From Blasia pusilla (lineage: Eukaryota): a stretch of 64,000 bases of DNA. A program made the translations under genes and the position numbers. The stretch lies in contig CM114271.1 of the NCBI GenBank assembly GCA_050084515.1, forward strand, positions 4,154,001-4,218,000, written 5' to 3'. The notes beneath the pieces were generated by a model. The model ran no database searches. It saw only the letters and a list, made by a program, of their open reading frames with translations, and was not told the origin of the DNA. Positions 21,910 through 61,614 of the stretch are shown here, piece after piece (the stretch's first letter is position 1; each line of letters begins with the position of its first letter).

Positions 21910-22312
21910 TATTGGATATTCAACATCTATTTCTAAATTCGCATCATTAATCTAAATGATCCCCTTGTATGAGGAGAAGCCTAGATTAATGGTCCCAACT
22001 TAGATATCTAAGGAGTCATAGTTACATGGCGTAGGTGATTTATAGAATAGAGTGTTATTCTAATGACCTAACTCTTCAAATGGGGAAAATTCTAACTAAA
22101 AAAATATAAAAATAGGCCACAAATATAATTTCCAGATTATTCATATAGTCGAGCAATTATAACACTAGTGCATTCTTGTATGTCGAGTCTTCTCCATGTT
22201 TTGGCCTAGGTTCAATAGAGGCTCAATTGTGAGCGCACAAACATATTAGGTCATTTTCTGCTTTAAGGATTTCTACATATTCAATGATTTGTTCATATTC
22301 TCTTTTGTTATA
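21910..22312 (+). mobile_element. Degenerate copy of LTR family B
   Basis: Shares CCTTGTATGAGGAGAAGCCTAGATT..TGGT, AAGGAGTCATAGT and GTATGTCGAGT..TCTCC blocks with 32914-33356. Confidence 0.65.
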
Positions 22313-27468: not shown

Positions 27469-27965
27469 GCTTTCGCTAAAAATCAAATAGTATAGGAAAT
27501 AGTATAGGTCACCAGACATAATGTCTAAACTATAGTGAAGTCCACATGGAAGACTTTGTGTCTAAAGTTCCATAAAATCCACTTTGCACAATTTTAAGTG
27601 AAAATTTAGAAGACAGAGTAAGAATAGGAATCATAACCCCCCTATAGGAATAGGAATCATAATTAAGACAATTGAGATAATTGAAAATTGAATTGGCTTG
27701 TTTTATCGACCAAGATTTTCCAAAAAGTGTTCAAATTCAGCTTTTTGGTAAGTGGCGTCCTGCCTCTTCTTCTGCTTCATCTCCGCCTCCATGCATTTCT
27801 TCTCGGCCTTCTCATCCTCCGCGAGCAATTTCGCTTCCCGCTTCTCCTCTTGCTTCGCGAGCTTCTCTAGAGCTAGCTTTGCCAACATTTCCTGCTTCCT
27901 CATCTTGGTTTCCTCTCGCGCCTCGATTTCCTCGTGCCGCACACCTACGGCCGTGCGTCGCGTAC

Positions 27966-30082
27966 TAGGATTCCTATCAAGTTTTAGCTCAGCCATTTCT
28001 ACTCTCAACTCTCTCAAACCTTTCGCCAATTCATCAATAGAATCTTCAAGCTTTGCTGACATGGGCTTAGGCAATAGATTTGAAATTGATACCTCCGACT
28101 TGAATAGTGCGATTCTACCTCTACTTCAACTTTGCTCTGTGAGAATAGCAACAACTTCTTCCACTTTCTTCCAATTAGTCTTGACACCTCCTTTTTCGGT
28201 TATGAAAAGCTTGTCCTCCAAATTCTCATCATGCCGCCTCAAGGAATAACTCGGTTTTTCTCAAGTCTAGAGTTGCTCTTTCGGAAGAAGAAAGCTGAAA
28301 AAACCGCTTATCAAACTCACGCAACAATTCATTTGGAGTCATTCCCTTCCCTAGACGTTGCTCTATCCATTCTAGAAAACTCCTCTTAATCACCCGATCC
28401 ACATCATCATCAAGAATTCTCCTTTCAGCAATTGCTCATACTCCTCCCACGAGGTTGGATTTTCTACTCTCAACTTCTTTACTTGACTACGGATCTCTAG
28501 TATTATAGCTAACTCAAAACTTGACACCATATAACCTTCGGGTACACGGTTTACCTCAATCTCACAGACGTATTCTCGAACATGGTTATGTCCCTCCCCT
28601 CAAATCTCCCCAACTTCTTTACAATCGCTTGGAGAGCCCTTGTTGATCTTTGCTCTCCTATGTGAACTCTTCCTTGTTGGCTCAATAATGTTGGCAAAGT
28701 TCAGAAAAGATCCTCAGCTCTCTCAATTCCCATTGATGAAATACTCCCAAAAGTAGTCATCTTGATAAGACTCCAACTTGCAAATACAATCTATCGCCTC
28801 AAAGATCTCTCAATGGAAGCATCATTTGTCATATCGAGAGCCTTTCTTCGTCTCGCGCAGGCCTTCTAGCTGCGGCACACGTGGTCGATGCAAGGTAAAC
28901 TCTTTGAGAAGTTCTCCTTTTTCAATGCAAAACTAATATGAATACTCTCTATTCTCTCACGACAAGTATCACAAATGGAAGTGCCGAGGTGATCACTTCT
29001 TCGTAACATCAGACCCCAAAATTCCTAACTATAAAATCCCTATAAACTATTTTACGTTTGTACACGAAGAAGATAGCACAACTAGTGTTAAAACCTACTT
29101 CACCAGGCCTATTGATATCCATGGATTGCTATATAAGGACATACAAAGTACAATCCCATATCCTTCCATATGTGACGATAGGAAGAATCACCGGAGTTGG
29201 AGATTGAATGACCTGGTTCATGAACGCTTCCCCAAAATGATAAACTAAATAGCGAGTGAACCAATGTCTATCTACAAAGAGTACCTTGACATGGTATGGA
29301 TTGAGGAAAGGAAATTCGGGCACAACTCGTGCTCCACCCCTATCCATGCTTGACACACATTCTCTACTCCTCAAGAATGGATTTTGGCGGAATTATTCTC
29401 CCAAGAGGGGTAATCCACTCTCATTGGGAAAGAAACAAGCCAAAACATTCACTATTTTAGTATGACAAGCCTCTCATCTCCACACACACACCACACTCTA
29501 GAAACTTCTCGAAGGATAGACCATGGTCAAGTTACTCTCCCAAGAGGGATGATCCACTCTCATTGGAAGAGCAAACAATCCCAAAGCCATACACTCAAGA
29601 GTGACACGAAAGACTCAAGATGTGGAATAGAAGGTGATGAACCCTTGAAGGTCTCTCTTCTTTATATACTCACAAGAGATCCACAAGAGTACGAAATAGA
29701 GCTAATCTTATCTCGTGCCATATGGCTTCCTCTCAAGGCTTAACCAATCACATTTTGACACAAGTAGATTTCCTCTTATCTCTTCCAAAATATCATTTTT
29801 TATTCACTTGATATTTTCCAAATTATCCCAACTAACCTAGCCACCAACCAAGCCTACTTTTGCTTTTCATTAAAGCACGAACTTGAGTACTTTACTTTTA
29901 TAAAGTCATCTTTTATTTATTATCTCTTTTCCTAAAGTTGGGCCCGCATAAAAGAGGCACCATAAAGAGGTTTAAACATGAGAATTTCCTTTTCCTAAGC
30001 TAATTTACTTAATACTAATAAAACTCTATCTAACATTTAACGAGGAAATAATTTACACACTGACTGATTTTACTATACGACA
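27966..30082 (-). mobile_element. Truncated family-A LTR retrotransposon: 5' LTR (30082..28827), PBS-like site and decayed gag-like coiled-coil region
   Basis: LTR collinear with 12733-13986. It is followed by AA-TGATGCTTCCATTGAGAG (TGGTGCTTCC in the 34685 copy). Downstream frame reads ...KLEDSIDELAKGLRELRVEMAELK. Confidence 0.85.
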
Positions 30083-30863
30083 ACGGTTGTAGATTGGAAT
30101 CGATAAGGAGGAAGGATCCGAGAGCCTTGTCCCCTTAGGAACCCCGTATATGTCCCATGTGATCCATGATGAGTCCCAACGCCTCCCCCGATTTTGAAGC
30201 TTTTGGAAACGAAAATCCATCGAAATCAATATTTGGTCCTTCCCCGAGAACAACCACATCGCAACTCCAAACGCTTCAAATCCAAGGCACCAACACTCAC
30301 TCGTCATCATCCGACAGCTCCTCCAGAATCACCGTTGGCCTCGTCCTTCCAAATTTTGGGATAACTGGTAGTGAGGATGGCGTCACAACCAGTGGCTCCA
30401 ATGGAGGTTCCTCTACTCGTCCAGGCAACTTGTAAATGCCAATCATCCTCTCATAATCTAACTTTTCCTCTCGGCAAAGTGCAAACAAGGCGTTCCTCAC
30501 CTCAAGGTAGAGAATGTTTTGCCCACTCTGCCAAGCAGCTCTAACACTTGCCCTAGAAAGACCGACCAAATCTAGAACCAAATCACATGGCCTCAAACAT
30601 AGCTCCATCAGGGTTTGCAGGAGTGAGGGGGATTTTTCCCTTCCTCCAAGCATAGGCACCCCTTCCTCGATCACGATTCGAGGGGGTGAATTTGACAGGT
30701 TGTTCAGAGTGTATCCACGTAAACCTAGATCAACATGATCCTTTACCTCAAAAACCTCAAACCTGTGCTCCGGTCTGACAAAACAATATACGTACGAATA
30801 TTCAATCTGCAAAAAACACTCGTTAAAATAAGCTTAGAATCGATGGGGGGAAGAGTTCCAAGA

Positions 30864-31178
30864 GAAACCCGACGGAATTTGACGGGTTGCAAATGAAATA
30901 TATCACCGAGGCAATTTTCTTTCAAGGGTCTCTCAGCATTCAGACGCTTTGCCCAGCAACCGTGGATGCCCAAAGTGCAACCCGTCAGAATCCGACAGGT
31001 TGCAAGGGTTGCGGCAAGGCCTATTAGGGTGGGTGCTGCGACCCGTCGGAGTCCGACGGATAGCAGGACCCACTCACTCTCTGGCATGTGTTTCGCAAAC
31101 CGTTGGAGTCCGACGCGTTGCAGGAAACACTCCCTTTCTGGGTTGGATTTTGCATCCTGTTGGAGTCCGACGGTTTGC
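30864..31178. repeat. Array 1 of 27-bp palindrome GCAACCCGTCGGAnTCCGACGGGTTGC (5 copies, intronic)
   Basis: Copies start at 30864, 30977, 31038, 31095 and 31152. Confidence 0.9.
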
Positions 31179-32913
31179 AAGAAAGAACAAAAAAATTTGC
31201 GGGTTTAAGTTATCGAACTTGCCAAAATTTGGTTTCAAACCGACCTTAGTGGGTAGTCATAGTTCACTACCCAAGATTGCACGGTTTGCCACTTCAATGA
31301 TCGCTTCACGCAGTGCAAGTTGAAGAGCTCATCCTTGCTTCCTCCGATGAGAACCAAGAAACACCTGGTGTCACTACGATACGCGTTGGTAAAGGAAAAC
31401 ATCATCGCTATCTGGTCATATGTGAATGGAGTGTTCCATTCCAAGACTATGTCGCGTGGATTTTCTGCCCACACTTTGAGCCCCGACGGTAGATCAGCGA
31501 TGAGGAGGTCAACTACAACCTCCTCACGAACCCCATTGACGGTCCATGGGGCATGGCCACTTTTCAGAAGCTTACGTCCCAACAGTGTCAGCTTCTCCAA
31601 GGCAGGTGTAGACTTGTGCTGAGAACTTATCCAATTCTTCCAGCAACGATGTCTGATGTAGCAGAATGGTGAGTTTTGCTGCTAAATCCCTGTGCTTCCC
31701 CAATGATGAAAGAGTCTAGACAAAATTCTTGTCCCCCCCCCCCCTCCCCCTTGAAGGAATTGGGTGTCTCCCTCTTTTGCTTTTCGTGTGTGGGGTGCCT
31801 GCTTGTTGGGGTCTCCGTGACATCGGAATCCACTGGATTTGATTTTGGGGCCTCCCGTATCCATCCTTCTCGTCTTGATGATCTTGCTTCGGATGGTTTG
31901 GGGGCCTTTACCTTGGCTCTCAACCCCGCAGTCGACTTGTCTTTTGCCGTGATTGTCTTTGACAAAATCTCCGCCGCCTCAATCGCTTGTGCCTTGCCAT
32001 CTCCTTCGAAGTACTCCTCGGTCTTGAAGATATTTGGGATGTTCTCCTCGCCAGCAGCTAGCACATGATACAAGTCTTGCATTTTGGGTCAATGAGCTCA
32101 TCAGGGTCATTGAAGTCCAACCAGATTGGACAGTTGAGCAATTCCCAAGGGCTCATCTCGAGGGCCATGTGCATGTCATACATGGAGAATCCTTCGCCAT
32201 TCGGAGTATCTGCCCATAGCTTGAGCGCAGCCGGAAACTTCCTCCATATTCTTGCATTCACACAAGAGTTCAAGAACTTGAACACCATCCTCTACGCAAC
32301 TCAATGGCGGGATGAATCGGCAGCTTGATCTTGAAGCTCCTTCTTCTTTTTGGTGAAGTCTCGTGTCTTCGGGTCGCCAATCTCCTCGTCGACATCCCCC
32401 TGTGGAAAAATCTGGTTCTTGAATATCATCTTGAACCCAGGGTTCTTTACCCGCTTATCCCGGATGTCATTTAACCACAACTCGAACTCCTCCGCTGATT
32501 CGAGGCTAGCCTCCTCGGGAATGAGCAGAATTCTCTGCATGTCATCTTGAAGGCATTCAATTATGGACTTTCCCAGCAAGCGCAAGGCATCCTAGAAGGA
32601 TGACTCTCGCAGCCACTGGGAGATGATTGGGTCCAAGGCCCTCAAGGGATGGTGTGCCAATTTTTTCTTTTCCTCTATTCCTTCTAGACTGATCTTCATC
32701 AATCTCATCCGCCTAAATTCGGAAATCCCTGAAAGGGCCAACCGGTGAACTCGATCCAATAACACCTTCTCTACATTGCATGCTTGGGGATCCTCATCCC
32801 TCTTTCGCTGCCTCTTGATTATGGCCTTCAACTCTTTGTAGAAGTCTGGCCCGAGCTCGGGGTTTAGGACGGCGATGTACCGCTGCATCTTGCTCGCAAG
32901 GTAATGGGTGGAC

Positions 32914-33356
32914 TGTTGGATTCTCAACATCCACTTCTCTAAGCACCATTAATCTGATCGGCTCCCTTGTATGAAAAGAAGCCTAGATTGATGGTTCCGA
33001 CTTAGACGTCGAAGGAGTCATAGTAATATGACGTAGGTGGTTTGAGGAGTAGCGTTACTAGGTTTATCTTACCCTATATTGCATCAGGGTGCCCCGCACC
33101 CTGATGCAATATAGGGTTAGATAAACGTTTCTTTGTTTCTATGAATAGAAACAAAGAAAAATAGGTAAAAACCCTAGTTTTCCCAAGTAGTCAAATAGTC
33201 GGGAGCCGCAACGGTAGCGCATTCTCGTATGTCGAGTTATCTCCCAGTTCAGGTTCCATCGAAGCTCTTCTGTGAGCGCACGGACGGACTAGGCCACTTT
33301 GTATCTCTAAGTTTTGTAAAGATTTCAGTGACTTCGTCACTTTCCGTTTTCTCACA
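32914..33356 (+). mobile_element. Solo LTR (family B, 443 bp) with 5-bp TSD TGGAC, inserted in the MTase-like gene
   Basis: TGTTG...CACA termini. TGGAC at 32909-32913 and 33357-33361. Homologous (inverted) to 47275-47700. Confidence 0.93.
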
Positions 33357-33709
33357 TGGACGCCGACACCTCAACTTAAATGAACTTGGCTCTCTCAGAA
33401 GCCGAAACATTCTCTCTCCACTCGAGCTCAAGTGTCGCGCTTCTTTTCGCCACCTGGATGTTTTACCAGCATAGTATTGTAACAACTACATCTTGGGAAA
33501 TGAATGTGTTGGCCCATGTCTTCTTTTTTATTTGGGCTCCTTTTGCGAGCATCTCATCCACCAATTCCTCTCCTAGGAATCCCTTGTATTACGATGGGTG
33601 AGTTCTAAGCACCTTCCTCACTAGGTCGTATTTTTGGATCCAGTGATGGGTAACATTCCTTCGGACACAATATTGCAAACATCAACAAAGAGTAAGAAAA
33701 TTTACAACT

Positions 33710-34071
33710 ACAACCCGTCGTTTTTCGACGGGTTGGAAGCAGACAAACAAAACAAAAGCTATTTGCAACCCGTCAAAGTCTGACGGGTTTTTCCAAAAGT
33801 TTTGAACAATCCGACGGAAATCCACGGTTTGTATTCGGGTCCATCACGGCTGGGTTGCAACCCGTCGGACTCCGTCGGGTTGCACCTCGACTCCGATAAA
33901 TTCAAAAATTTAACCCGTCAGAAACCGACGGATTGCAAAGCCATCCAAATTGAGTTGAGGATTCAGACGCTAGTTCTTGCACTCGCAACCCGTCGAGGTC
34001 CGACGGGTTGGAAATTATAGAGTGCCAACATGCGAGTTTGATTGGCTCTGCAACCCGTCGGTCTTCAACGA
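33710..34071. repeat. Array 2 of the 27-bp palindrome (7 copies; last one cut by an LTR)
   Basis: Copies start at 33710, 33765, 33806, 33857, 33910, 33985 and 34050. Confidence 0.9.
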
Positions 34072-34840
34072 TGTCGTATAGTAAAATCAACCTGTGTGTA
34101 AACTCCTTCCTCGTTAAGTGTTAGATAGAGTTTTATTAGTATTAAGTAAATTAGCTAAGGAAAAGGAAATTCCCATGTTTAAACCTCTTTATGGTGCCTT
34201 TCCTCAATCCATACCATGTCAAGGTACTCTTTGTAGATAGGCACTGGTTCACTCGCTATTTAGTTTATCACTTTGGGGAAGCGTCCATGAACCAGGTCAT
34301 TCAATCTCCAACTCCGGTGATTCTTCCTATCGTCACATATGGAAGGACATGGGATTGTACTTTGTATGTTTGTATATAGGGATCCATGGACGTCAATAGG
34401 CCTGCTCAAGTAGGGTTTAACACTAGTTGTGTTATCTTCCTCGTGTACAAGCATAAAGTAGTTTATAGGGATTTTATAGTTACTAATTTTGGGGTCCGAT
34501 GTTATGAAGAAGTGATCGCCTCGGCACTTCCATTTGTGATACTTGTCGTGAGAGAATGGAGAGTATACATGATAATTTTGTATTGAAAAAGGAGAACTTC
34601 TTAGAGAGTTCACCTTGCATCGACCACGTCTTCCGCGGTTAGAAGGCTTGCCCTTACTCGACGAAAGGCTCTTGATACGACAAATGGTGCTTCCACTGAG
34701 AGATCTTTGAGGCGGTAGATTGTGTTTGCAAGTTAGAGTCTTATCAAGATGACTACTTTTGGGAGTACTCCATCAATGGTAACTGAGGGAGTTGAGGATC
34801 TTCTCTGAACTTTGACAACATTGTTGAGCCAACAAGGAGG
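34072..34840 (+). mobile_element. Family-A LTR (34072..34682, with ~640-bp internal deletion near 34199) plus PBS-like site and short internal sequence
   Basis: Reverse complement of the 28827-30082 LTR ends (TGTCGTATAGTAAAATC...GATACGACA). TGGTGCTTCCACTGAGAG at 34685. Confidence 0.9.
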
Positions 34841-34852
34841 AGTGAGAAGGCA

Positions 34853-35100
34853 GTGTCCTGCCTCTTCTTCAGCTTTATCTCCGCATCCATGCGTTTCTTC
34901 TCGGCCTTCTCCGTATCTACGAGCAATTTTGCTTCTCGCTTCTCCTCTTGCTTCGCGAGCTTCTCCAATGCAAGTTTCGCCAACATTTCCTGCTTCCTCA
35001 TTTCGGCTTCACGCTCGCGTTGCTCGATTTCTCTCGCCGTACATTTGCAGGCGTCCGTCGCGTAACAGAAGGTGGAGTTCAGCTGGATTTAGGCGAGAAG
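34853..35100 (-). pseudogene. Coiled-coil coding fragment, probably an upstream exon of the MTase-like gene; second copy at ~27703-27965
   Basis: MRKQEMLAKLALEKLAKQEEKREAKLL..EKAEKK.M.AE.K.KKRQD occurs at both loci on the minus strand. Confidence 0.55.
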
Positions 35101-35506
35101 CTCTCGACCGTGCTGGCTTAGCTTTTTTTTCGAGTCATCTTGAAAAAAGCGTAGAATCAAACATTGCGCGAGGGGTTTTCTCCTGAATCTTTGTTTCCTC
35201 TTAAAAGAATTGATTCAACTCGAACCGTCGTCACTAATTGTCGTAACCCCCAAATGAAGAGACAACAACCAACCGTCGAAATGTCCGAGTAATTGGAAAG
35301 TCAATTTTCGTAGTCGTGTGAACGGGGGAGCTGAAATCAACGCTGAAAAGTATAGAATGGAAAAGTGAAAGCGTCGAAACTGGTCCTCATATACTTTCGG
35401 AGCAATTGCACTCAACCGTTGGTACGACGGTCGACCGTTGGCGTCCGATGGATAACCGGTTGTACGATGGTCGACCGTTACGGTGCAAGTTCCGCGTGGT
35501 CTGCCT

Positions 35507-35775
35507 GCAACTTGTCAGAGTTTGATAGGTTTCTGGGAGAGATCCCGCTCAGTTCCTCCAACACGTCAGACCCCAACGGGTTGCAAGGTACCCATCCAGC
35601 TTGGGTCCCGTGCAACCCGTCTGACTCCGATGGCTTGCACAAGGACCATTCATCCTGATTCATGCAACCCGTCGGACTCCGACGAGTTGCAAGAAGATCA
35701 CGTGAAACATGCACGATAACCCACGCACTGAACCTGTGCGAGAATTTTGCAATCCGTCGGACTTTGACGGGTTAT
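35507..35775. repeat. Array 3 of the 27-bp palindrome (5 copies; a further degenerate copy near 35849)
   Basis: Copies start at 35507, 35558, 35612, 35664 and 35749. Confidence 0.9.
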
Positions 35776-36599
35776 GTTGTCCCATCCAAACTCGATTCAA
35801 CTCGACAAAATGCTTAGGGCTCGTTCCTTGATCTTTCCCTTCGATATTCCAACCCGTCCGGCTCCCAGGGATTCAAGGAAGCCTGGAAAATCCTTGCCCA
35901 CTACTGAGTAAAAAGCATGGCCAAATATTCCTCTGGCTGGTCCAGTCAACTAACTACCAACTGCATGTCAGACATATTCTGTCTGAATTTAAATGGACAC
36001 TGTTCACTATAAATTCAACATTTTCATTCTTATTCTCATTCTCATTCTTATTCTTATTCTATCTTGGAAATCATTCATGGTCTGACCAAAATGGAGAATT
36101 ATGTGAAACTCACATGTGGCAGCCATTAGCGGGCCTTCCTCAATCAGAGATAATTCGAGCCCAACCTGGTGACATTCATGTAATTGTCGAAGAACATTTC
36201 CTCTCACTCCAATTTCTACTCCATATTGGAACCATTTTTGTATCCATGGATGTCAAGGTTGATGGGCAAGATGATGTTATTGGTGAAACAGTCCAACCGG
36301 AGATTGGAGGCTCCAAAGTTTGGAACCTCTTTCCCTACTCCAATGACAATTCAGAGTTTATGGCTTACCTCTGATCACCACTTCCACTCATGAAGACGGT
36401 CCGAGACCTTCCACTGTTCCATGCTCCACGTTTGGCACGGCTGCTTCGGCCGATCCAACGTCAACTCCAATTTCACAAGCACGGAATGTCGCGGTCGATC
36501 TCACCGGATCTGTTGGAAACATGTCTGACCCAACATCTGCTTACTCTTTCCTGCTTTGAGTTTCAGGGAATTATTTGCTTTCTTCTCTTCCCTTGAAAC

Positions 36600-37180
36600 T
36601 GTTCAAGCACGTTATCGTGGATAAGCTGCCCACAACGTATGATGAAGACTGCATTTTTGAGCTGCCTCCACTTGTCAGTCTGGCTTAGAAAAAAGATGGA
36701 GGCCGCCTGAAGGGTATGGACCGAAAATTGGACCATAATCGATGGTGCAGATTACAGCGGACGAGCGCTTCAATCCCATGTGATCCTTGGATTGTGTCTC
36801 ATCGCCAATGCGTTGGCGCATTGGAGTGCAGAAGTTCAGGATGCCCCTTCCTCGAGAGGAACGCAGTTGTTAATACTTCCCTATTCCCTCCCAAAAATGC
36901 AGAAACTCCTTACGCTGTGGTTACCACCATACTACTGGGTGGCCATCGATGTTCGCACTGTCAAGCTTGTGCTTCCTATGTTAGAGCTTGTCCAACTTAT
37001 ATTTTTTTCATAGTGCGCGACTACACTTCTATGTCCGAGTATACAAGGTTGGAAATTCATGTTGGGTCTCACACTCATCCTGTCACGGGTGCAATTGAGA
37101 GACACATCAAGGAGGATGTGGCAAAGAAAGTGGCCGGAATGTACAAAAATTCTCTAGGATCAAATCCAGGAGTGATCTAG
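36600..37180 (+). pseudogene. Transposon-type protein fragment with WRKY/GCM-like zinc-binding domain
   Basis: Frame reads VDKLPTTYDEDCIFELPP..*..LKGMDRKLDHNRW...HRQCVGALEC....CPFL....RCSHC.....CPTYIFF....RLEIHVGSHTHPV. The Cys pattern with terminal G.H.HP resembles the GCM/WRKY-like DNA-binding domains of Mutator-like transposases. No DDE core is visible downstream. Confidence 0.6.
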
Positions 37181-40100
37181 GAAATCCCCAAGTTCCTCAT
37201 AAGATTTTCATCCAAATTTTTGTGACGTCCATCATGTATTCTTTGTCCCTATCTCATATTCTTATTGTGGGTAGCTTCTTGCAATACTTCTATTATGGAA
37301 ATATATAGCCAAAATTTTGTTCCTAATAATTTTAACATAAATCATAATATCTTGGCTTCATGACAAGCTATCTTGCCTATTTATTTTGAAATGTATGCCT
37401 TTTCTCCTCAATCGCATACGTCCCAAAAGAAAATTTGAGGAAGTTGAATTGGGCTTTAAGTTTTCTCCAAGGAGATGCAAGTATCATGTAATATAGTCTA
37501 TGATGAGAAGGGAGATCTCTTATTCCCACAACATTTGAGATTTTCCAAAACTCTTCTTCCACTTGCTTCAATTAATTGATTATAATAGAACTTAATTGAC
37601 TTCAAGTGAAGGTTAAGTGCCAACCAAAATTTTAGTTTGAATTTTCCAAAAAACTATCTTTTTCACAAAAAAAGTCGCCAGTGTTAGTAACTTCGGCTCT
37701 TAACAACCACCAAGCTTAGGGAGTTAAGTACACAAGGCTACATTTTCAAGATTTCATAATGCGAGCATGAATATTGGATTCCATGGATCCCATCCCATTC
37801 TTTGTATGAATGCCAATGATACCTAATACAAAAACCTAAAAGTAAAATTAGATTCAAACGCTTCCATACATGCAAATATTAATACATATAGTGGATTTTC
37901 ATAGACTCATAGAAGGGAAGGATGATTGTTTTATTGCACCTAGACAAAAGAGGGGTTAAAGGGGAGTGTGATACGAAATATCAATGAGACCATACACACT
38001 TACAAAATGAGTGCAAAAGTGGAAAGAGAATATACTTAACACAAAATTCAATATTTCATAATTAGAGGTACTAAAAGTGCATAATTTTTTGAGAGGGAAA
38101 TAGAGGAAGACAATGATTTGAATTAATTTTATTATCCATGCCGTCACTAAAAGTAACCACTTTGGACTATTTTTAACCAATCTTATTGTTGCATGTGTCC
38201 TTAAATCATTGGAGGTCAATTGGGGAATCATTTAAATTACAAAGGCAACCACCTCTTCCATTGCATTCCTTTCATGTTGATATATTGGTCATGATGGGTA
38301 ATTTAAATTACCCATCATGACTTATACATCATCATTGGCCTCTACATCGATGTGTTCAAGTATAAGAAATTTGACACGTAGAAGATTGAACGTCCGATGT
38401 TCAAGACCAAAACATCGGTCTTGTATTCATGGGATTGGAAGGTTGGAAGAAGAGCCTCGGATTTCCAGCCACTATGCATAGGCGGATGCGTATGGAAGAA
38501 CAATGTTACAGATTATATGATGTTGCGTGAGATCTCACGTGAGATTTGATCATTGCCGGTTGTACTACCATACTCCAAGGACATACCGTTTGTACTCTCC
38601 TTACTGAATGCATTTGAACATAGAGCACGTCAATTAGATTTAGAGATACATCAAGAACTATCCAATGTAAGCGCAAGACTATTTCTTGAGCTTGCACTCA
38701 ATCGGAGGTAAAACGTATTTTTAGGCTAGCCGCATCATAGATATACCACATCCTAAATTACATTCATACCTCACGTTGGGACAGAGATAATGGCAGTCGT
38801 GAGACCTTTTCACCTGTGCCATCGTCTGATCCAATCCGAAAGAGCCATTTTGCAGTGTTAATGAAGCTTTCTCAATTCCTACCAAATAACCCGGTGTTAA
38901 TGAAGCTTTCGGGTTACTTGGTAGGGCAGTGTTAATGAAGCTTTCTCAATTCCTACCCTTTTTTTTTATTCTTTTACACCTGGAAAAAAATTGTATTTTT
39001 TTATGATCCAATCATAGTTACATTGCTATAAATTTTTAATTTATTCATTAAATTAATTTATTAATGTGATTCAACTGAATTTATAACTAACCCTGATTTC
39101 AATTATCATTGGCTCAAATGGCAAGAAAATAGAATTGAATTTCAAATAGGTGATGGAAACAGAAATGATAAAAGTTGAACAAAGGAGGATCCTCTAAGGA
39201 AAAAAAAGTTTTGATGTTTCATTTTCAATAGGAAAGGGGAAGAAAGATAAGGAAGAAACTTTCAATAAGGGATGGGAATCATCGTGTGTAAGAGAGGGGG
39301 AAATTTTCCAACAAAAAAGTGCTTACAAATCATTATTTAAGGTGTTTAATCTAGAATAAAGGATGGGGGGAGGTAAAACGACAATTTTTTCAAGGGAGTA
39401 AGAGATAGTTGAAGATGCTAAACAAACCAACCTTCTTATGATCCTTTCTTTTCCTCCATAATATGAAGGGATGGACCTTAGCCTCTTCATTCCGATCTAA
39501 TGGCACAAAGAGTAAAAGGGAGAGACTACATCCCCATCTCTACCCAATTCACATAAATGAAGATACAAGATAGGGGAGGGACGAAGATATGGCATACATC
39601 TTCATCCCTCATAGCGTCTATGGCATAAATAGAGGGTATAGACAAAAACTCTCCACTCCTTTGAAGAGTAAAGACATAGAAGGAGATGGATGGGATGGGG
39701 AAGGGAGGTAGATAGAGAGGACCCTCCATTCTTACAACAGAGGGAGACGTCAATGCTAGAGGTCCTCTTAGTGATAGTCATGTTTCTCTAGGCGTAGCTG
39801 ATATTGTCTATGTTGTTGGTAAGTTTAGCTCGTGGGGGAGGGTGCACCCTTTTTTCTTTCACTCGGGCCATGTGTGGATTTGATGTACTAAGATCATTGA
39901 GTCCCTACTCTTTTGTACTTTGGGTGGATTCTCCCATCATCCTTTTATGCAGGATTTCTTTCCTTCAAAGAGGAATATCTTAATCATATGTATTTGGAAA
40001 CTACTTGCCAGAAGTAATCAACTAGATTTTTTTAAACTCCCAAAAAATACATTTTTATTGAAATTTCACATATCAATCTAAATTATAAAGAATGAATGGT

Positions 40101-41149
40101 TCAAGAGAAAATAATAACACTCAAGAGTCAAGGATTCATCCGTTTGTGTCCCAACAATTCTCTCTCCTTTTAGGGTACAATTTTTTTTAATGGAATTGGA
40201 GTTATGATTAGCATTCAAAAAATATTCAATTGATTGGAGGAGTGGAGAAATAGAAAAGTGGGGGGAAATTCTTTTGGATATGTGACTAGTGGGTTTTCTT
40301 TTTAACATTTTTCATCTCTATCCCTCCACCCTAATGCAATGTTATGGTATTGAATTACTAGTTCCTTAGAACAATTAGTGGAACAGACCAATAACTCAAA
40401 CCTTAACATCAATAAGCTTGACCCAAAATTTTAAAAATTCTACCTGTTTTGCACCAAAAAAATTTCAAGATGTTTGTGTAGAAATTAGAATTTCTTCAGT
40501 TTTACTGCTGGTATTTTCAAAACATTTCCTACTCCATGGGTTAAGAAAGTCCCAAAAAAAAGTCTTCACAGCTAAAAGAGTTTCAAGAAAAGATTCAAAA
40601 GCTTGTGCACTTTGGAGCATCTTATGGTTCATCTGGGAAAGAGTCTCAAACATATACACCGTGGCTTCGTACATTTGAGCACTAGTTTTGAAATTATTAT
40701 ATGGAGGGACTAATAACCAATGACCAATCAATCAAAACACAAACTTTTCATGTTTGTGAAAGACGAAAAATTTATAGCCAGAACATCCTCTGAATACTAA
40801 AAAAGAATTATCAACATTACACCGCAAACTTGTTCATTCCGCTTTAGTATCTGATATAAAAGTCATATACACGCTTAAATGCTTCATTGAGGTTCTGTTT
40901 TAGACGTGCTCTAGGAGTGCCGATTGTTGCTCCTCACACTTGTTCTATTTGATATTGGTTTGCAGATGGTTCACACGTGGTGGAATAAGATCGACGTTCA
41001 TGAAAGACTATTTATTTGCATGGACCCAATTATCAAAGTAACAACTTACGTTTCGGCCAATTTGGAGTTCTCGACATAACAACGTGAAATCTAAAATGGG
41101 AGGAGTTCACATCACCATTATTATCCAATCAACAACCTACTAATAGACT

Positions 41150-43398
41150 AGATTTGGCTATCAGAGGTTTTCAGAAAAGAAAAAAAGAGTCATTAAGGCT
41201 CATTCTTGAGAAGAATATTATGGGTAAGGTTGTAGGATATATCCATGTGGTTGAATTCCAAAAAAGATGTTTACCATATATACACATTTTGATTATTCTA
41301 GGCTATGAGGATAAGCCACATTCTATATCTAATTATGATGATATAATATCAACTAAGACATCTAATGCAAACACTCATCCAAGACTTCATTCTACTATAG
41401 CTAATTTCATGCTTCATGATCCATGTGGATAACTCAATCCCAATGCTTCATGCATGGACAAGAAAACCAAAAAAATGTGCCAAAAGCTATTCGAAGCCAT
41501 TTGCAACCATCATTAAGGAGAGCGAGGATGGTTATCTAATTTATTGAAGGTATGCAATCTATGTCCAATTTCAATCATCTTTTTCCTCCCCTTGATTCGA
41601 AAATATTTTTCATGAAATATTTTGAATTTTTTTCCTCTTTCCTACTAAAAGAATTGGTTAATGGAATGAAGATAAGGAAGCACAGTCAAACTTTGGGTGA
41701 TTGTTGGATTTTTTCTTATCATATCTTCTTATATACTCTCTTTATTGAGTCTTCAAATGTCATATCAATTTGAAGATAAAAAACACAATTTCAATTATGA
41801 AATACTTATATAAATATGTGTAGAAGGGATCACATGTCATCTCATTTAAGGAGTGAGATGATGCAACTATCTCCTTATAAATTAATATTATTAATGAAAC
41901 CTCACACTATCTTGATGCAAATTAAGCATTATTTTATTTTTGGTCATTTTAACATTTCGGGATATTCTAAAACAATATATTCAATACTAATCTATTTTTA
42001 TCCTCATTATTATTATTATGTATTGTGTATCGATATATCTCTTCTTCTGAGGCATGCAGGCGACTTTTCAAGTTAAGCTTACTTACAGAACATCCAAGTA
42101 TTGTAAGATTGGCAAATCATCTATGAGAGTTGCAAATATTTTTCTTCAATGATCACGATATTATAACATAAAATCTACAAAAAGATAGGGAGACAACTCT
42201 CAAAAAAATATTTGCAACTAACTATTTTGATTCTTCAACACGCAAATATTTCTCTATTGAATTTCCTTCATATAATTATTAGAGGAGTAAAAAATGGATT
42301 TGTAGATTCATAAAAGAAACGGTTGTGGTCATTTTATTGGTCAATAGTATCTGTCACATCCAGATATATCTGCTTACAATTTCTACAATATTAAAACCTC
42401 TTTAGGTTCCGTTTCAAAATTATGTGGAATATTTTACGCAATACACATTTACATTTATGTTTGTATAGGTGAAGGAGAATTCCATTGGTTGTGGTTGCTA
42501 CTTTATCATATTTGAGTTGCTACTGCATATGTGTATTTAAGAACCATAGGTGGAGTGCTTTATCCAACCTTCAAGGAGGATACTATTCAAATGTATCTTC
42601 TCAAGGGCGGATAATGGGAAAGTTTACTTATGTCTCCAAGAAGCTTTTGAAATTTACACGGGTCGTACGCTTTGTCAACTCTTTGTCATTTTTCTAGCCT
42701 ATAACACACATTTTCAACGTGATGAACTATAGAGTCAAATTTTTATCTCACATATAGATAATATCCTATATAAACAACGTGAGGTAATTCCTATTCTTAT
42801 TTTCTTTAGCACACATATTTATTCCATCTACTAATCAACTTATTTAATGAATTATAGGATCGATTAAGACAACAAGGATTTTTTATCTTGCCCTCGATGC
42901 TTTCATTATTAATACCATATTATTGGAGGTTCACTATCATTTGCAAGACCAAAGGAAAGAGACTATCAGATTTCCCAAATTTGTCCTAAGCTAATTGCCA
43001 TGCTTCATCTTTCCATTCTTATTTGGAAGCAAAAGAGCTCCTTTATGATCGTGATTCATTATATGAACAAGCTAGGTTAGGAGAGAAGAATTTGAATGAT
43101 AAAAATAGTTTATTTGGAATGCTTTACACAATAGTCATGATATTTGAAATTTCATTAATGAATGTAATATCTTGCCCAAAATATGAATATCTTTAAATAC
43201 TTAATAGCAAAGTTGTATGCTTAATTCAAAGAGCTTGGATTATCATAGGGGTTGAGGCACTTATAATTCATCACCATGCATTTGAGGTTGTAAATAATTC
43301 TTTCTAAGATACCATGAGAGTGGTATCCTAAGACTTTAGAAATATTCCGTTCTGAGGAAAATTAATAATCTATGTTGGAGATTTTTTCCAAGGCTTGC
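41150..43398 (+). mobile_element. Decayed Helitron RepHel (Rep core to PIF1 helicase motif III)
   Basis: HVVEFQKRCLPYIHILI (HUH motif), MLHDPCG*LNPNASCM, KYLYKY, and at the right end EAL..HHHAFEVV...PF*GKLIIYVGDFFQ. Confidence 0.9.
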
Positions 43399-46700: not shown

Positions 46701-48240
46701 TGTCAAAAAGTTGTTGGCCAAAAAGGACAGGTGTTACCGGTTAGGGTGTTTGAAACCCAAAAGGGCACTATGCTATAATAGTTATTATTATAGCATGGTG
46801 CCAAGCTAGAGCAAGAGTTGTTGAAGAAACTACACACATATAAACAAAACAAAGAGAGAGGTAGCTTGCATAAACAAGAAGAGTGAGAGGATGCACAAAG
46901 AGAATAAGAGACGCTCATTCTTCTCCTTGTATATAGAGGTTGGGAGAAGCAATGCTTGCCATAGAATCCACACAAAAGGTTTATAACCTTACCCTATATG
47001 AGTACACAAGTTACATGAACCAACTCATATCACTTTTTAAGCTATCACGCTAAATATCAATATACTAACCTATATGAAGCATCTTAAGCTTGGGCTTGTA
47101 TTAATTTTCCCCCTCAAGATCATCCCTACATATCCTTTACATATAAATGGAATTTTAAATAATCAAAATTATCTCTAGATAGTATCTAGGTGAAGATATA
47201 ATCCAATTGTTCATTTGTATTAACATATGTAAGCTTTACTTTATCTACAAAGATTTTCTCTCTAATGAAATAATTGTGAGAAAACAAAAAGTGACGAAAT
47301 CACTGAAATCTTTACAAAACTTGGAGATAACTCGACATAGTGGCATAGTCCGTCCGTGTGCTCACTGAAGAGCTTCGATGGAACCTAAACATGGAGATAA
47401 CTTGACATACGAGAATTCGCTACTGCTGCGGCTCTTAACTTTTTAACTACTCAGGAAACTAGGGGTTTTTACCTATTTTTTGTATTTCTATTAATAGAGT
47501 TTTTTCATCATGGTGCCCCACGCACCGTGATGCAATATAGGGTTCGATAATCCTAGTAACGCTACTCCATAAACCATCTACATCATATTACTATGACTCC
47601 TCCGATGTCTAAGTTGGCACCATCAATCTAGGCTTCTCCTCATACAAGGGGGCCGATCAGATTAATTGTGCTTAGAGAAGTGGATGTTGAGAATCCAACA
47701 ATAATAAAGCATCTTAATGTGCTTTGCCCTAACTTGAAACATTCTTTTTTTTTCCAAATGAATATTGTTGATATTCTCTCATAAATGAATATTAGATTTG
47801 AATATTCTAAGCCTATATATATGAGTAGATTTTTCAACCAAATTGATTTTTGTAATGCCATGGTTACTCTTTGGTATTAATCTTTAAATGAAGATAAGGC
47901 ACAAATCAACTATTTCTTCAAAAACTAGCCTACTACCACACTTCCAAATTTGAATCTGGAAGTTGATCTTCTGTCATGGGTGTTCCAACCCAATATTCAT
48001 AAGAATACATGTATACTTACAAGGCTTTAATTATGAGTAGTGAAGTCTAAACAGATTTTTGAATTTCACATACCTTATGACCCGCCTAATTACATATATC
48101 GAGATGTAGTTTATGCACTGGTTGCATAAATTGACTTACCAAACCAATTGCATAATTAAGATCTGGCTTATGATAGTCTAGTAGATCAAACTCCCAACCA
48201 TAGCATAAGAAGTGTTGGGATTGCTTATCTCATTGTCTTC
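46701..48240 (-). mobile_element. 3' part of a Ty1/copia element (RT C-terminus, RNase H, PPT, probable 3' LTR ~47105..46701)
   Basis: MVGSLIY....PDLNYAIGLVSQFMQP; KHIK...FIREK...YVNTNEQLDYIFT; PPT CTTGAGGGGGAA at ~47117..47106. Confidence 0.85.
47275..47700 (-). mobile_element. Solo LTR (family B) with 5-bp TSD ATAAT, nested in the copia RNase H
   Basis: TGTGAG...CCAACA termini. ATAAT at 47270-47274 and 47701-47705. Inverted homolog of 32914-33356. Confidence 0.93.
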
Positions 48241-61434: not shown

Positions 61435-61614
61435 GTATTTGTCAAGTCCCGTGGGCCTTTTGGATCCTTGTGGACAATAATCATCGCATTCATTCTCTCC
61501 TGTGGACAATAAATCAGTTCATTCATTGTCTCTCTCTGTGTAGCATGGGCTGCCTATTGTCGGAGTAGGAGGAGCCACTGCCCTATGTGCTGAACGTGAG
61601 AGAGAGAGAGGTGG

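Follow-up and report, generated by a model that had tools for sequence, protein, structure and literature searches.

Palindrome arrays in a decayed two-gene repeat of Blasia pusilla, a possible mobile element

In En/Spm (CACTA) elements, the TnpA protein binds repeated 12-bp subterminal motifs, partly arranged as inverted pairs, which lie near a CpG-rich region of the element whose methylation TnpA counteracts. In the VANDAL (Mutator-like) elements of Arabidopsis, the anti-silencing VANC proteins are described as binding, and acting on, short family-specific motifs repeated in tandem within non-coding DNA of the very elements that encode them (PMC10398659). The Marchantia DN4MT1s (MpDN4MT1a/b) are reported as beta-class enzymes with a TSPPY motif (bioRxiv 10.1101/2021.02.12.428880), and the bdelloid N4CMT as a eukaryotic acquisition of an amino-methyltransferase (PMC8885841). 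Mobile elements with methyltransferase (MTase) domains have been described as well, namely DNMTs in dinoflagellate and charophyte retrotransposons and the MTase domain of DIRS1, every copy of which is predicted to be inactive (PMC4738411, PMC5890265).

Here we describe a block at positions 30083–37180 of a 64-kb window of Blasia pusilla DNA (the whole stretch analysed), which whole-genome (WGS) reads place in a repeat family of roughly 100 copies. We tentatively read it, at a little under an even chance, as one dead copy, broken up by insertions, of an unclassified mobile element that carries two genes and has a middling copy number in the plant's nuclear genome, and whose palindromes would be binding-site arrays for an element-encoded protein. 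Its parts are the following:

28826–30085, minus strand: retrotransposon LTR, left bound of the block (self-BLAST and repeat search)
30086–30296, minus strand: non-coding 3′ tail that ends the MTase-like gene and belongs to the repeat family (summed DNA depth 81)
30297–30833, minus strand: last-exon ORF of 178 aa, C-terminal part of the MTase-like gene
30834–31234, strandless: candidate intron (DNA depth 77 and 46, like the exons)
30864–31178: palindrome array 1, five copies in the candidate intron (spacings 113, 61, 57, and 57 nt)
31235–32948, minus strand: upstream coding part, five ORF pieces with in-frame stops and frameshifts
32914 to ~33400 (right end approximate), strandless: small high-copy repeat insertion dividing the MTase-like gene within its 5′ part
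33710–34076: palindrome array 2, seven copies, the last one cut by the LTR insertion (depth 115–137)
34071–35064, plus strand: rearranged, inserted retrotransposon fragment that splits the intergenic palindrome region (depth up to 1378)
35141–35500: CpG-rich stretch (observed/expected [o/e] 1.63) of lower copy number (DNA depth 20–30)
35507–35875: palindrome array 3, six copies upstream of the Cys/His-rich gene (depth 232 in bin 35454–35697)
36091–37180, plus strand: Cys/His-rich gene of ~360 codons, broken by two frameshifts and two in-frame stops in this copy
36809–37081, plus strand: metal-binding-type domain, CxGxxxCx4C ... CxxCxxCx6CP ... HxH
37181–37385: sequence after the stop of the Cys/His-rich gene, over which family depth persists (48, last bin)

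Scanning for the 27-bp palindrome (consensus GCAACCCGTCGGACTCCGACGGGTTGC) with up to nine mismatches returned 18 sites, all in the three arrays between 30864 and 35875 and none elsewhere in the 64-kb window, close to the 17 or so copies counted in the sequence-only reading; a repeat-finding program clustered 16 copies. At the same limit, 20 mononucleotide shuffles scanned on one strand held 0–1 sites each, and with up to three mismatches we obtained 7 distinct sites (10 matches over both strands) versus 0 in 100 shuffles. The palindromes all lie outside long ORFs, either in the 401 nt that separate a pair of minus-strand ORFs or in the region between the oppositely oriented gene candidates, which agrees with their proposed confinement to intron and intergenic DNA, the intron itself remaining a candidate. 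Each is built from two 12–13-bp half-sites, with the centre as its most variable part, and pairwise identity amounts to 0.70 among palindromes versus 0.456 among spacers (shuffled control: 0.42). Conserved palindromes with drifting spacers and a variable centre fit the pattern of dimer binding sites and, given that the palindromes are conserved and the spacers are not, would suit binding-site arrays as in VANDAL/VANC. In the WGS reads, other family copies also carry palindromes—with regular 33–39-nt spacers—and depth over the palindromes is 1–4 times gene depth, which is not satellite-like.

The block holds 4.41 CpG per 100 nt (o/e 0.81), compared with 2.60 (0.66) in the window as a whole and 1.60 (0.52) in the flank to its right, in keeping with the earlier impression of a CpG-rich block in poorer surroundings; the palindrome arrays have a CpG o/e of 0.90–1.35, and other GC-rich parts of the window (24–26 kb and 58–62 kb) are equally rich. 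On the left, the LTR truncates the element 211 nt beyond the stop of the MTase-like gene and is followed by gag-like minus-strand ORFs (27703–28599); further copies of it lie at 12732–13989 and, inverted, at 34062–34843. The inserted fragment comprises an LTR and leader part (34071–34843), from which ~640 nt of the left copy are missing, and a coiled-coil, gag-like piece (34855–35064) resembling 27757–27964, with a polypurine-type loose end of RNA reads just before 34071. The small repeat at 32914–33400 encloses a 31-nt inverted repeat (33062–33126), reaches a WGS depth of 534–967 with 612 loose ends at 32914, and recurs within the window at 47275–47700 and 21912–22257. A second palindromic repeat sits in the CpG-rich stretch 35141–35500, with two 26-nt copies at 35414–35479 that hold AACGGTCGACCGTT; whether this stretch belongs to the element is uncertain. 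To the right, the element extends to at least 37385. We located no right end; the window does not include the element's termini, and the right side of the block has no inverted match to the left side. In-frame stops, at least two frameshifts in the minus-strand gene, and the LTR and small-repeat insertions mark this copy as dead, as had been proposed.

Family depth was taken as summed WGS depth from ~1% of one run and came to 29–81 over the minus-strand gene (30086–32769). At eight listed places every read (14–35 of 14–35) differs from the window, so the window's own copy was barely sampled; in the 3′ tail this applies to positions 30101 (35 reads), 30206 (21), and 30216 (21). Four defects of this copy are missing from the majority (55–68%) of other-copy reads, and each difference restores the called ORF frame. 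The upstream part of the minus-strand gene has stops at 32592–32594, 32301–32303, and 32292–32294, and its frame shifts near 32083 and again between 31627 and 31681. Of these, the stop at 32592–32594 reads TGG in 34 of 50 reads (TAG to TGG at 32593), and an additional base after 32083 turns two ORFs into a single frame (18 of 32). In the plus-strand gene, one extra base after 36126 sets ATG 36091 in frame (39 of 63) and another after 36344 fuses two ORFs (28 of 47). Both genes were thus once real, and the claim of two oppositely oriented pseudogenes holds, the frames of both being open at these four sites in most other-copy reads.

The candidate intron and its array belong to the repeat family, and all 16 frame-keeping GT-AG pairs for it enclose array 1. 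RNA reads are sparse (depth about 0.3–9) and cover both the exons and the candidate intron; depth over 30834–31234 is not below that of the exons, giving no splicing signal. Over the MTase-like gene, the RNA has the strand that it also shows over the inserted plus-oriented LTR, which with the usual dUTP chemistry would make it antisense to both genes. Listed variants of the MTase-like ORFs (9 synonymous, 25 non-synonymous; 11/13/10 at codon positions 1/2/3) gave no sign of selection among copies. A copy-by-copy linkage of both genes with the arrays is suggested only by their similar depth.

The minus-strand gene encodes a protein of ~740 aa or more, in which MTase likeness is limited to ~35–60 residues (about 53–120 of ORF 30297–30833) with motif X and a degenerate motif I; the resemblance to these amino-MTase motifs spans residues ~64–112 of the 178. 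Of 30 named ESM hits, 29 were PF01555 (score 0.91, recognition 3055), and the best tblastn matches among 50,697 phage records were adenine MTases (E 0.7–3). Pairwise BLASTP to one such phage enzyme, itself PF01555 at 7.5e-42, gave 33% identity over 60 aa, across GKKPEALL...DLVLDSFGGSGTT. PHROG returned two hits in all, both 'DNA methyltransferase' (E 0.062 and 0.36), and hhalign an E of 0.002 at 13.7% probability. With a 4-sequence profile, the score of the ORF was reached by 0 of 1000 shuffles, and it ranked 2nd among 1214 window ORFs (E 0.32). Neither MTase-like ORF had a Pfam match at E ≤ 10 or a relevant PDB match by phmmer, phmmer against 1.84 billion representative proteins gave only two spurious repeat-protein matches, no tool detected an MTase signal in the motif IV half (ORF 31235–31681), and single-sequence AlphaFold models had a pLDDT of 35–36. 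The signals are non-independent, all falling on the one ~35–60-residue stretch. Across methods they weakly converge on an MTase, and a beta-class (N6/N4) amino-methyltransferase is the probable source of the C-terminal region. Of the MTase label, then, a weak, convergent likeness in one stretch stands, without a Pfam match. At curated Pfam thresholds, neither an MTase nor a GCM or MULE match appeared, an outcome that had been named beforehand as counting against the whole proposal; the MTase reading is still sustained by the weaker, converging signals. The FxGxG position of motif I reads VGLSRAS, and DLPS stands at the expected place of motif IV in the upstream coding part (31235–32948; by eye only), by which this copy has lost the AdoMet-binding glycines and, as judged by eye, the catalytic (D/S)PP(Y/F) motif; at least this copy is therefore no enzyme. 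A DNA methyltransferase-like gene, if confirmed, would be an uncommon component of a mobile element in plants.

Depth over the Cys/His-rich gene rises from 55–83 in its 5′ part (36186–36673) to 400–649 over 36674–37161, making the zinc-rich 3′ part ~10 times deeper than the MTase-like gene, and the two genes do not strictly share one distribution; a sister family of the Cys/His domain is ~ten times more abundant. When hand-translated in the ORF frame, four 30-nt loose-end consensus strings of this sister family gave 24 of 37 identical residues, even though the DNA at these strings is too unlike the window for the 80% limit and shows synonymous Arg, Leu, and Pro changes: the domain is conserved at the protein level. 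Pfam returned no GCM, WRKY, FAR1, FLYWCH, or MULE profile match, and the only sub-threshold matches were of the 4Fe-4S ferredoxin type (Fer4_10, E 4.7e-4, below its cut-off; PsaC, E 0.32; an NdhI-type family, E 0.046), so that the GCM/WRKY-like label given to this gene is not confirmed by any tool. A weak ESM lead points to plant En/Spm-type proteins (Transposase_24; score 0.86–0.87, recognition 1917). The protein is probably DNA-binding.

Of the earlier description as a DNA transposon relic, a single dead member of a multi-copy family survives; the block yielded no transposase, TIR, or TSD, and none of the 30 ORFs scanned in it matched a Pfam family at the cut-offs applied (E ≤ 0.01 to E ≤ 10). 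The palindromes could instead be ordinary cis-acting transposition sites, subterminal or internal, at which a transposase or a TnpA-like protein would bind, as is the case in En/Spm (CACTA), Ac/Ds, or Mutator elements. The MTase-like gene would then be cargo, a gene fragment captured or acquired horizontally that plays no part in marking or protecting the element. We consider this rather unlikely. A multi-copy family, arrays that are kept while spacers are not, the ESM lead to Transposase_24, the degenerate MTase motifs, and the binding of TnpA to 12-bp subterminal, partly inverted motifs would all suit it, but the arrays lie between and inside genes rather than at identifiable ends, there is no TIR, and Transposase_21, _23, _24, and MULE are without a Pfam match (E ≤ 0.01 to E ≤ 10). 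Moreover, the long MTase-like ORF is open in most other-copy reads at three sites, which is unexpected for junk cargo.

Chance juxtaposition and over-reading—a spurious MTase similarity, a Cys/His ORF from a more abundant repeat, and arrays that are an unrelated short tandem repeat—seem less probable again. The MTase-like ORFs indeed lack a significant database match, their best E-values (0.002–0.7) stem from one short stretch, depth over 36674–37161 is ~10 times that of the other gene, and the palindromes of other copies have regular 33–39-nt spacers. Against this, depths are alike over the MTase-like gene (29–81), the intron array (46–77), and the 5′ half of the Cys/His-rich gene (55–83), palindrome depth is just 1–4 times gene depth, unlike a satellite, and 18 of the 18 palindromes in 64 kb fall inside the block; the four frame defects are missing from most other-copy reads, and ESM, PHROGs, and tblastn name one enzyme family. 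Helitrons and large DNA viruses commonly carry DNA methyltransferases or captured genes, and a Helitron_like_N fragment (41088–41429; E 2.1e-12) lies 3.9 kb downstream on the strand of the Cys/His-rich gene, with a paralogue at 51825–52104. That the two-gene unit is Helitron cargo or flank, or what is left of a large DNA virus once integrated here, nevertheless strikes us as very improbable: the best weak MTase matches are viral (phage) enzymes, yet a eukaryotic-type (candidate) intron apparently interrupts the MTase-like gene, no other viral gene occurs among the 30 ORFs scanned, 37400–41000 is AT-rich with no plus-strand ORF that looks coding by eye, and the sequence upstream of the paralogue has no similarity to the block.

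If the block is a mobile element with its own binding sites, a dimer of an element-encoded protein, for which the Cys/His-rich protein would be the first candidate, may bind the palindromes of all family copies, which sit in the shared upstream region of both genes and in the candidate intron of the minus-strand gene, and thereby govern the chromatin state and the promoters of the element itself. As for the MTase-derived protein, it could be a recruited modifier or, more likely in view of its motifs, a non-catalytic DNA- or AdoMet-binding adaptor.

Compared with known systems, the Cys/His-rich protein resembles WRKY-GCM1 zinc fingers (GCM, WRKY, FAR1, MULE transposase N-termini) by eye only, in an early C-x-G-x3-C-x4-C, a final G-x-H-x-H-P, and an inserted Cys cluster, and differs in the lack of a profile match and in a C...HxH spacing of ~75 residues. 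The other gene resembles beta-class MTases (PF01555, N6_N4_Mtase) in the stretch GREKSPSLLQTLMELCLRPCDLVLDLVG, which in phage adenine MTases aligns with motif X and the beginning of motif I, and by eye in the motif order, IV-like upstream and X-I at the C-terminus; set beside the Marchantia and rotifer enzymes by description only, it is no single host gene but TE-like and present in many copies. Retrotransposon-borne MTases are polyprotein domains of other classes (C5-DNMT, PCIF1-like group-2 enzyme), whereas here the MTase-like gene stands alone in a unit with no RT or recombinase. To En/Spm leads the weak ESM similarity of the Cys/His protein, but Transposase_21, _23, and _24 gave no Pfam match to the block and CACTA ends would fall outside the window. 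From VANDAL/VANC the block differs in lacking a MULE transposase, TIR, or VANC-like gene, in a motif that is a 27-bp palindrome and not a short direct motif, and in an accessory gene that looks MTase-derived, of a kind that VANDALs, to our knowledge, do not have. Here too, however, family-specific motif arrays—predicted binding sites—occupy only the non-coding DNA of a multi-gene repeat, while the spacers between them drift.

The block (approximately 30086–37385) is best read as the dead remains of one copy of a mobile element that carries two genes and fits no known class, with palindromes that form putative binding-site arrays. It is embedded in repeat-rich DNA of plant nuclear type, with a GC content of 0.43–0.51 against 0.30–0.40 over most of the window. 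The features of the block and its surroundings are listed below; long terminal repeats (LTRs) were located by repeat and self-comparison searches.

Features of the block and its surroundings
12732–13989: LTR copy with TG...CA-type ends
16931–18322, minus strand: ORFs with Copia-type reverse transcriptase (RVT_2) and integrase SH3
27703–28599, minus strand: gag-like ORFs, next to the left LTR copy
28826–30085: left LTR copy, TG...CA-type ends
30833 to 30297, minus strand: last-exon ORF of the minus-strand, methyltransferase (MTase)-like gene, 178 aa
30864–31178: palindrome array 1, 5 copies
32948 to 31235, minus strand: further ORF pieces of the minus-strand gene
32914–33400: small inserted repeat, with copies at 47275–47700 and 21912–22257
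33710–34076: palindrome array 2, 7 copies, the last one truncated
34071–34843: right LTR copy, inverted, TG...CA-type ends
34855–35064: gag-like fragment in the wrong orientation, similar to 27757–27964, adjoining the inverted LTR copy
35507–35875: palindrome array 3, 6 copies
approximately 36091 to 37180, plus strand: ORF pieces of the plus-strand, Cys/His gene
41088–41429: Helitron_like_N fragment (Pfam E 2.1e-12)

The sequence-only reading had counted about 17 copies of one palindrome, confined to non-coding DNA of this block, and this description held. The consensus GCAACCCGTCGGACTCCGACGGGTTGC had seven distinct sites at ≤3 mismatches (ten matches over both strands) versus none in 100 dinucleotide shuffles, and repeat finding placed 16 copies in a single group. 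A scan at ≤9 mismatches, for which mononucleotide shuffles read on one strand gave 0–1 sites, returned 18 sites in three arrays and none elsewhere in the 64 kb. Pairwise identity was 0.70 among the palindromes, compared with 0.456 among the intervening spacers and 0.42 among shuffled spacers. Variability was highest at the central 3–5 bases, and at the CpG positions of the consensus 19 of 24 changes were of the CpG-to-TpG/CpA type. Folded as single strands, the best copies reached −12.8 to −14.3 kcal/mol (z-scores −5.4 and −6.3). Read joints from other copies of the family showed successive palindromes spaced 33–39 nt apart, and one 39-nt spacer was covered by 80 reads in four variants; the palindrome was absent from the metagenomes scanned. 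As with the targets of VANC, a protein that acts on motif arrays of its own VANDAL elements, the arrays are family-specific and restricted to the non-coding DNA of the element.

The block was also confirmed to be richer in CpG, with 4.41 per 100 nt (observed/expected 0.81) against 2.60 (0.66) for the window, a level similar to that of two further GC-rich regions of the window; within the arrays the ratio rose to 0.90–1.35. A second palindromic repeat, at 35414–35479, consists of two 26-nt copies that are 88% alike and each contain AACGGTCGACCGTT. It lies within a CpG-rich stretch (observed/expected 1.63) immediately left of array 3, at a DNA depth of just 20–30 and an RNA depth of 5–7.

Beyond the window, the analysis drew on protein databases and public reads. 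Copy number was gauged from DNA reads at ≥80% likeness, taken from about 1% of one whole-genome run (1.97 billion letters), with depths summed.

Summed DNA depth along the block
Minus-strand gene and tail: 29–81
Bins with array 1: 77 and 46
Array 2: 115–137
Array 3: 232
36186–36673: 55–83
36674–37161: 400–649
37162–37385: 48
Small inserted repeat: 534–967
LTR: up to 1378

The reads were 80–99% alike, indicating many diverged copies, and we roughly estimate a family on the order of 100 copies, a figure that takes dispersed and tandem copies together. Within the 64-kb window, tblastn found no other copy of either gene. At eight listed places, all of the 14–35 reads disagreed with the window, so the copy in the window itself can have contributed hardly any reads.

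These reads also bear on the state of the genes. Stops, frameshifts and LTR insertions are all present, as the sequence-only reading had it in calling this copy dead. The minus-strand gene carries in-frame stops at 32592–32594, 32301–32303 and 32292–32294, and its frame shifts near 32083 and again between 31627 and 31681. The first of these stops reads TGG in 34 of 50 reads, and an extra base after 32083 (18 of 32 reads) joins the ORFs 32058–32291 and 31627–32088. On the plus strand, an extra base after 36126 (39 of 63) brings the ATG at 36091 into frame, and another after 36344 (28 of 47) joins the ORFs 35832–36374 and 36347–36559. These four defects are missing from the majority of other reads, so that, by frame arithmetic done partly by hand, each gene was an open reading frame in the ancestor of the family. 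The variants listed in the minus-strand ORFs fall 11, 13 and 10 on the three codon positions (9 synonymous, 25 non-synonymous), a spread that is neutral decay after insertion and is uninformative on selection in master copies.

The left LTR copy truncates the block 211 nt past the stop of the minus-strand gene, and the inverted copy interrupts the last palindrome of array 2; the Copia-type ORFs at 16931–18322 may represent the internal part of the retrotransposon to which this LTR belongs. Since the right LTR copy lacks about 640 nt (equivalent to 29312–29954 of the left copy) and the gag-like fragment beside it points the wrong way, a rearrangement or inversion has taken place here. The 4-kb segment between the inverted LTRs may itself have been flipped by them, which would change how the two genes are oriented towards each other. 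Together with a 160-nt leader, the LTRs form an inverted pair (28666–30085 and 34062–34843; 0.8–1.4 kb) that flanks the MTase-like gene. The small repeat is transcribed and of very high copy number. Its copy in the window has a 31-nt perfect-type hairpin at 33062–33126, and 47 RNA reads bridging 33054–33132 skip 77 letters and carry 13 other letters instead.

RNA depth over the block was low (approximately 0.3–9, three RNA runs), and the candidate intron with array 1 was covered as well as the exons. In nearly all RNA pairs the first mate lay on the minus strand over 30330–32769 and on the plus strand over 36186–36673. Over the LTR, plus-oriented by a polypurine-type loose end before 34071, first mates were on the minus strand (46–143 versus 2–12). 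Should the LTR signal be sense, which depends on the library chemistry, the transcripts over either gene would be antisense.

Of the proposal that the block derives from a DNA transposon, the existence of a multi-copy family is borne out, judged by depth. A Pfam scan of 30 ORFs in and around the block (28–37 kb) returned no transposase (DDE, MULE or Transposase_21) and, sub-threshold matches aside, no family at the thresholds used; plus-strand ORFs downstream to 41 kb, judged by eye alone, included none resembling a transposase. No inverted match that could serve as a terminal inverted repeat was found, in an element whose left end was cut off where the LTR stops (30085). Autonomous copies may exist elsewhere. 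Farther along, the Helitron_like_N fragment has a paralogue at 51825–52104 (72% identical, 10 kb away), and the ORFs near the two include no helicase part of a Helitron. A perfect-type 31+31-nt palindrome at 38274–38335 gave the only Rfam signal (E≤0.1), sub-threshold matches to miRNA precursors (28 bits against gathering scores of 74–80), and is probably a mere hairpin within repeat DNA. By eye, the ORFs at 61600–63429 on the plus strand look like the exons of a host gene of purple acid phosphatase type; three pieces of them had no Pfam match at E≤0.001.

Whether the minus-strand gene encodes an amino-MTase, as the sequence-only reading proposed, turns on one short stretch of its last-exon ORF, spanning the conserved motifs X and I, which all positive signals share. 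In this gene, 16 GT–AG pairs would each splice out the 401-nt gap with array 1 while keeping the reading frame (for example tgg/GTAGTG at 31270 with TTTTTTGCAG/ at 30807). On the favourable side, ESM features assigned PF01555 in 29 of 30 named matches (score 0.91, recognition 3055), with just 156–160 features shared and subject to the caveats that the method itself states. The best tblastn matches among 50,697 phage records were adenine MTases (E 0.7–3, residues 53–135), both PHROGs matches were annotated 'DNA methyltransferase' (E 0.062 and 0.36), and BLASTP against one phage MTase, itself a PF01555 member at 7.5e-42, gave 33% identity over 60 aa covering motifs X and I. Alignment to four phage MTases with hhalign reached E 0.002 across 32 columns, yet a probability of 13.7%. 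None of 1000 shuffles attained the score of the ORF against the profile of these four sequences, a test that is not independent because the profile was picked after the tblastn result. In the other copies, residue Q105 is R in 27 of 42 reads, a change that presumably shifts the segment towards the PF01555 consensus pattern 'GR..G.E'.

Against these signals, Pfam returned no family at E≤10, PF01555 included, for the ORFs 30297–30833 and 31235–31681 (both minus strand), NCBIfam gave nothing relevant to an MTase, and PDB phmmer gave no match for ORF 30297–30833. The PDB matches of ORF 31235–31681 were monobody and Nip7 noise. A protein homologue search with the MTase-like ORF returned no match, and a phmmer scan of 1.84 billion representatives with the 178-aa ORF as query gave two repeat-protein matches (residues 9–54), which we rejected as spurious. 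Among 1214 window ORFs of at least 30 aa, the phage MTase HMM ranked ORF 30297–30833 second at a non-significant E of 0.32, and it gave no score on the exon-1 ORF. Motif I, the AdoMet-binding FxGxG, aligns LVGLSRAS to SFGGSGTT, with VGLSRAS in its place; no motif IV, (D/N/S)PP(Y/F/W), was found upstream of motif X, only 'DLPS' behind a hydrophobic strand, by eye, in an ORF (31235–31681) that did not align to MTase profiles and had no detectable MTase signal. What survives of the proposal is at most a weak likeness over the motif X/I stretch, and what falls away is support from Pfam, NCBIfam and PDB, together with, in this copy, FxGxG and motif IV. Weighing both sides, we consider it reasonably probable from sequence comparison that the C-terminal region is homologous to amino-MTases, and catalytic activity of the window's copy is next to inconceivable.

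The partner gene had been called GCM/WRKY-like, an assignment that no tool supported: no profile of GCM, WRKY, FAR1, FLYWCH or the MULE N-terminus matched it. A Cys/His pattern is present by eye, with a spacing atypical for the WRKY-GCM1 zinc site. At E≤10, Pfam gave Fer4_10, Auts2 and Fer4_8 only, each under its cut-off (Fer4_10: E 4.7e-4, 20.5 bits, cut-off 25.5); Fer4_10, PsaC from the PDB (E 0.32) and an NdhI-type NCBIfam family (E 0.046) all matched the segment CSHCQACASYVRACPT, so that the profile evidence is sub-threshold and ferredoxin-type. ESM pointed, weakly, to En/Spm-type proteins of plants. Protein homologue searches gave no match, the protein was absent from the metagenomes scanned, and single-sequence AlphaFold models of both ORFs were unusable (pLDDT 36.0 and 35.2; Cys/His model 36). 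Upstream of its ATG, a low-complexity TTCTCATTCTTATTC-type run occupies 36054–36129, where 68 DNA reads from other copies skip 68–74 nt.

Evidence that the domain is real comes from a sister family, an approximately tenfold commoner repeat sharing the Cys/His domain in the 3′ part of the gene. Four loose-end consensus strings from the reads, hand-translated in the frame of the Cys/His ORF, align with it as follows.

Sister family (left) against the Cys/His ORF (right)
CPYLERNGRV against CPFLERNAVV
FFIVHDLGS against FFIVRDYTS
VYRNSPGSK against MYKNSLGSN
SDCHRWCRL against LDHNRWCRL

Of these 37 residues, 24 are identical in DNA too divergent for the 80% likeness limit; by this comparison of translated sequences, the Cys/His domain is conserved as a protein. 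Even on the modest reading, the family is a repeat of no known class that holds two genes and whose conserved Cys/His domain also occurs in a roughly ten times larger sister family, and it merits a whole-assembly description.

A far more ambitious reading, which we regard as improbable, is that a land-plant mobile-element family encodes a module of its own for modifying DNA, or for countering modification, in a sequence-directed way. Here a bacterial- or viral-type beta-class amino-MTase homologue (either catalytically active in master copies or an inactive AdoMet/DNA-binding adaptor) and a Cys/His-rich DNA-binding partner would act on 27-bp CpG-rich palindrome arrays in promoter and intron, writing 4mC/6mA on, or shielding from 5mC, the element's own copies only. 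Apart from this ambitious reading, an amino-MTase-derived gene beside such arrays in a plant element would be a new kind of accessory gene among elements that act on their own motif arrays. It would also be a second entry route of bacterial-type N4/N6 methyltransferase folds into plant genomes, besides Marchantia DN4MT1 (bioRxiv 10.1101/2021.02.12.428880). In full texts outside subscription journals and supplements, searched with narrow terms, no paper came up on a DNA transposon of plants that carries one.

Under the best-supported reading, the dead two-gene element, the palindrome arrays would let the element direct control of its own promoter and chromatin. Few mobile elements are known whose activity is directed at arrays of motifs in the non-coding parts of the element itself, the cases being VANDAL with VANC and En/Spm with TnpA. 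The action of TnpA on En/Spm is a further likeness for such self-directed control. VANC acting on VANDAL is what the proposed control would resemble (PMC10398659).
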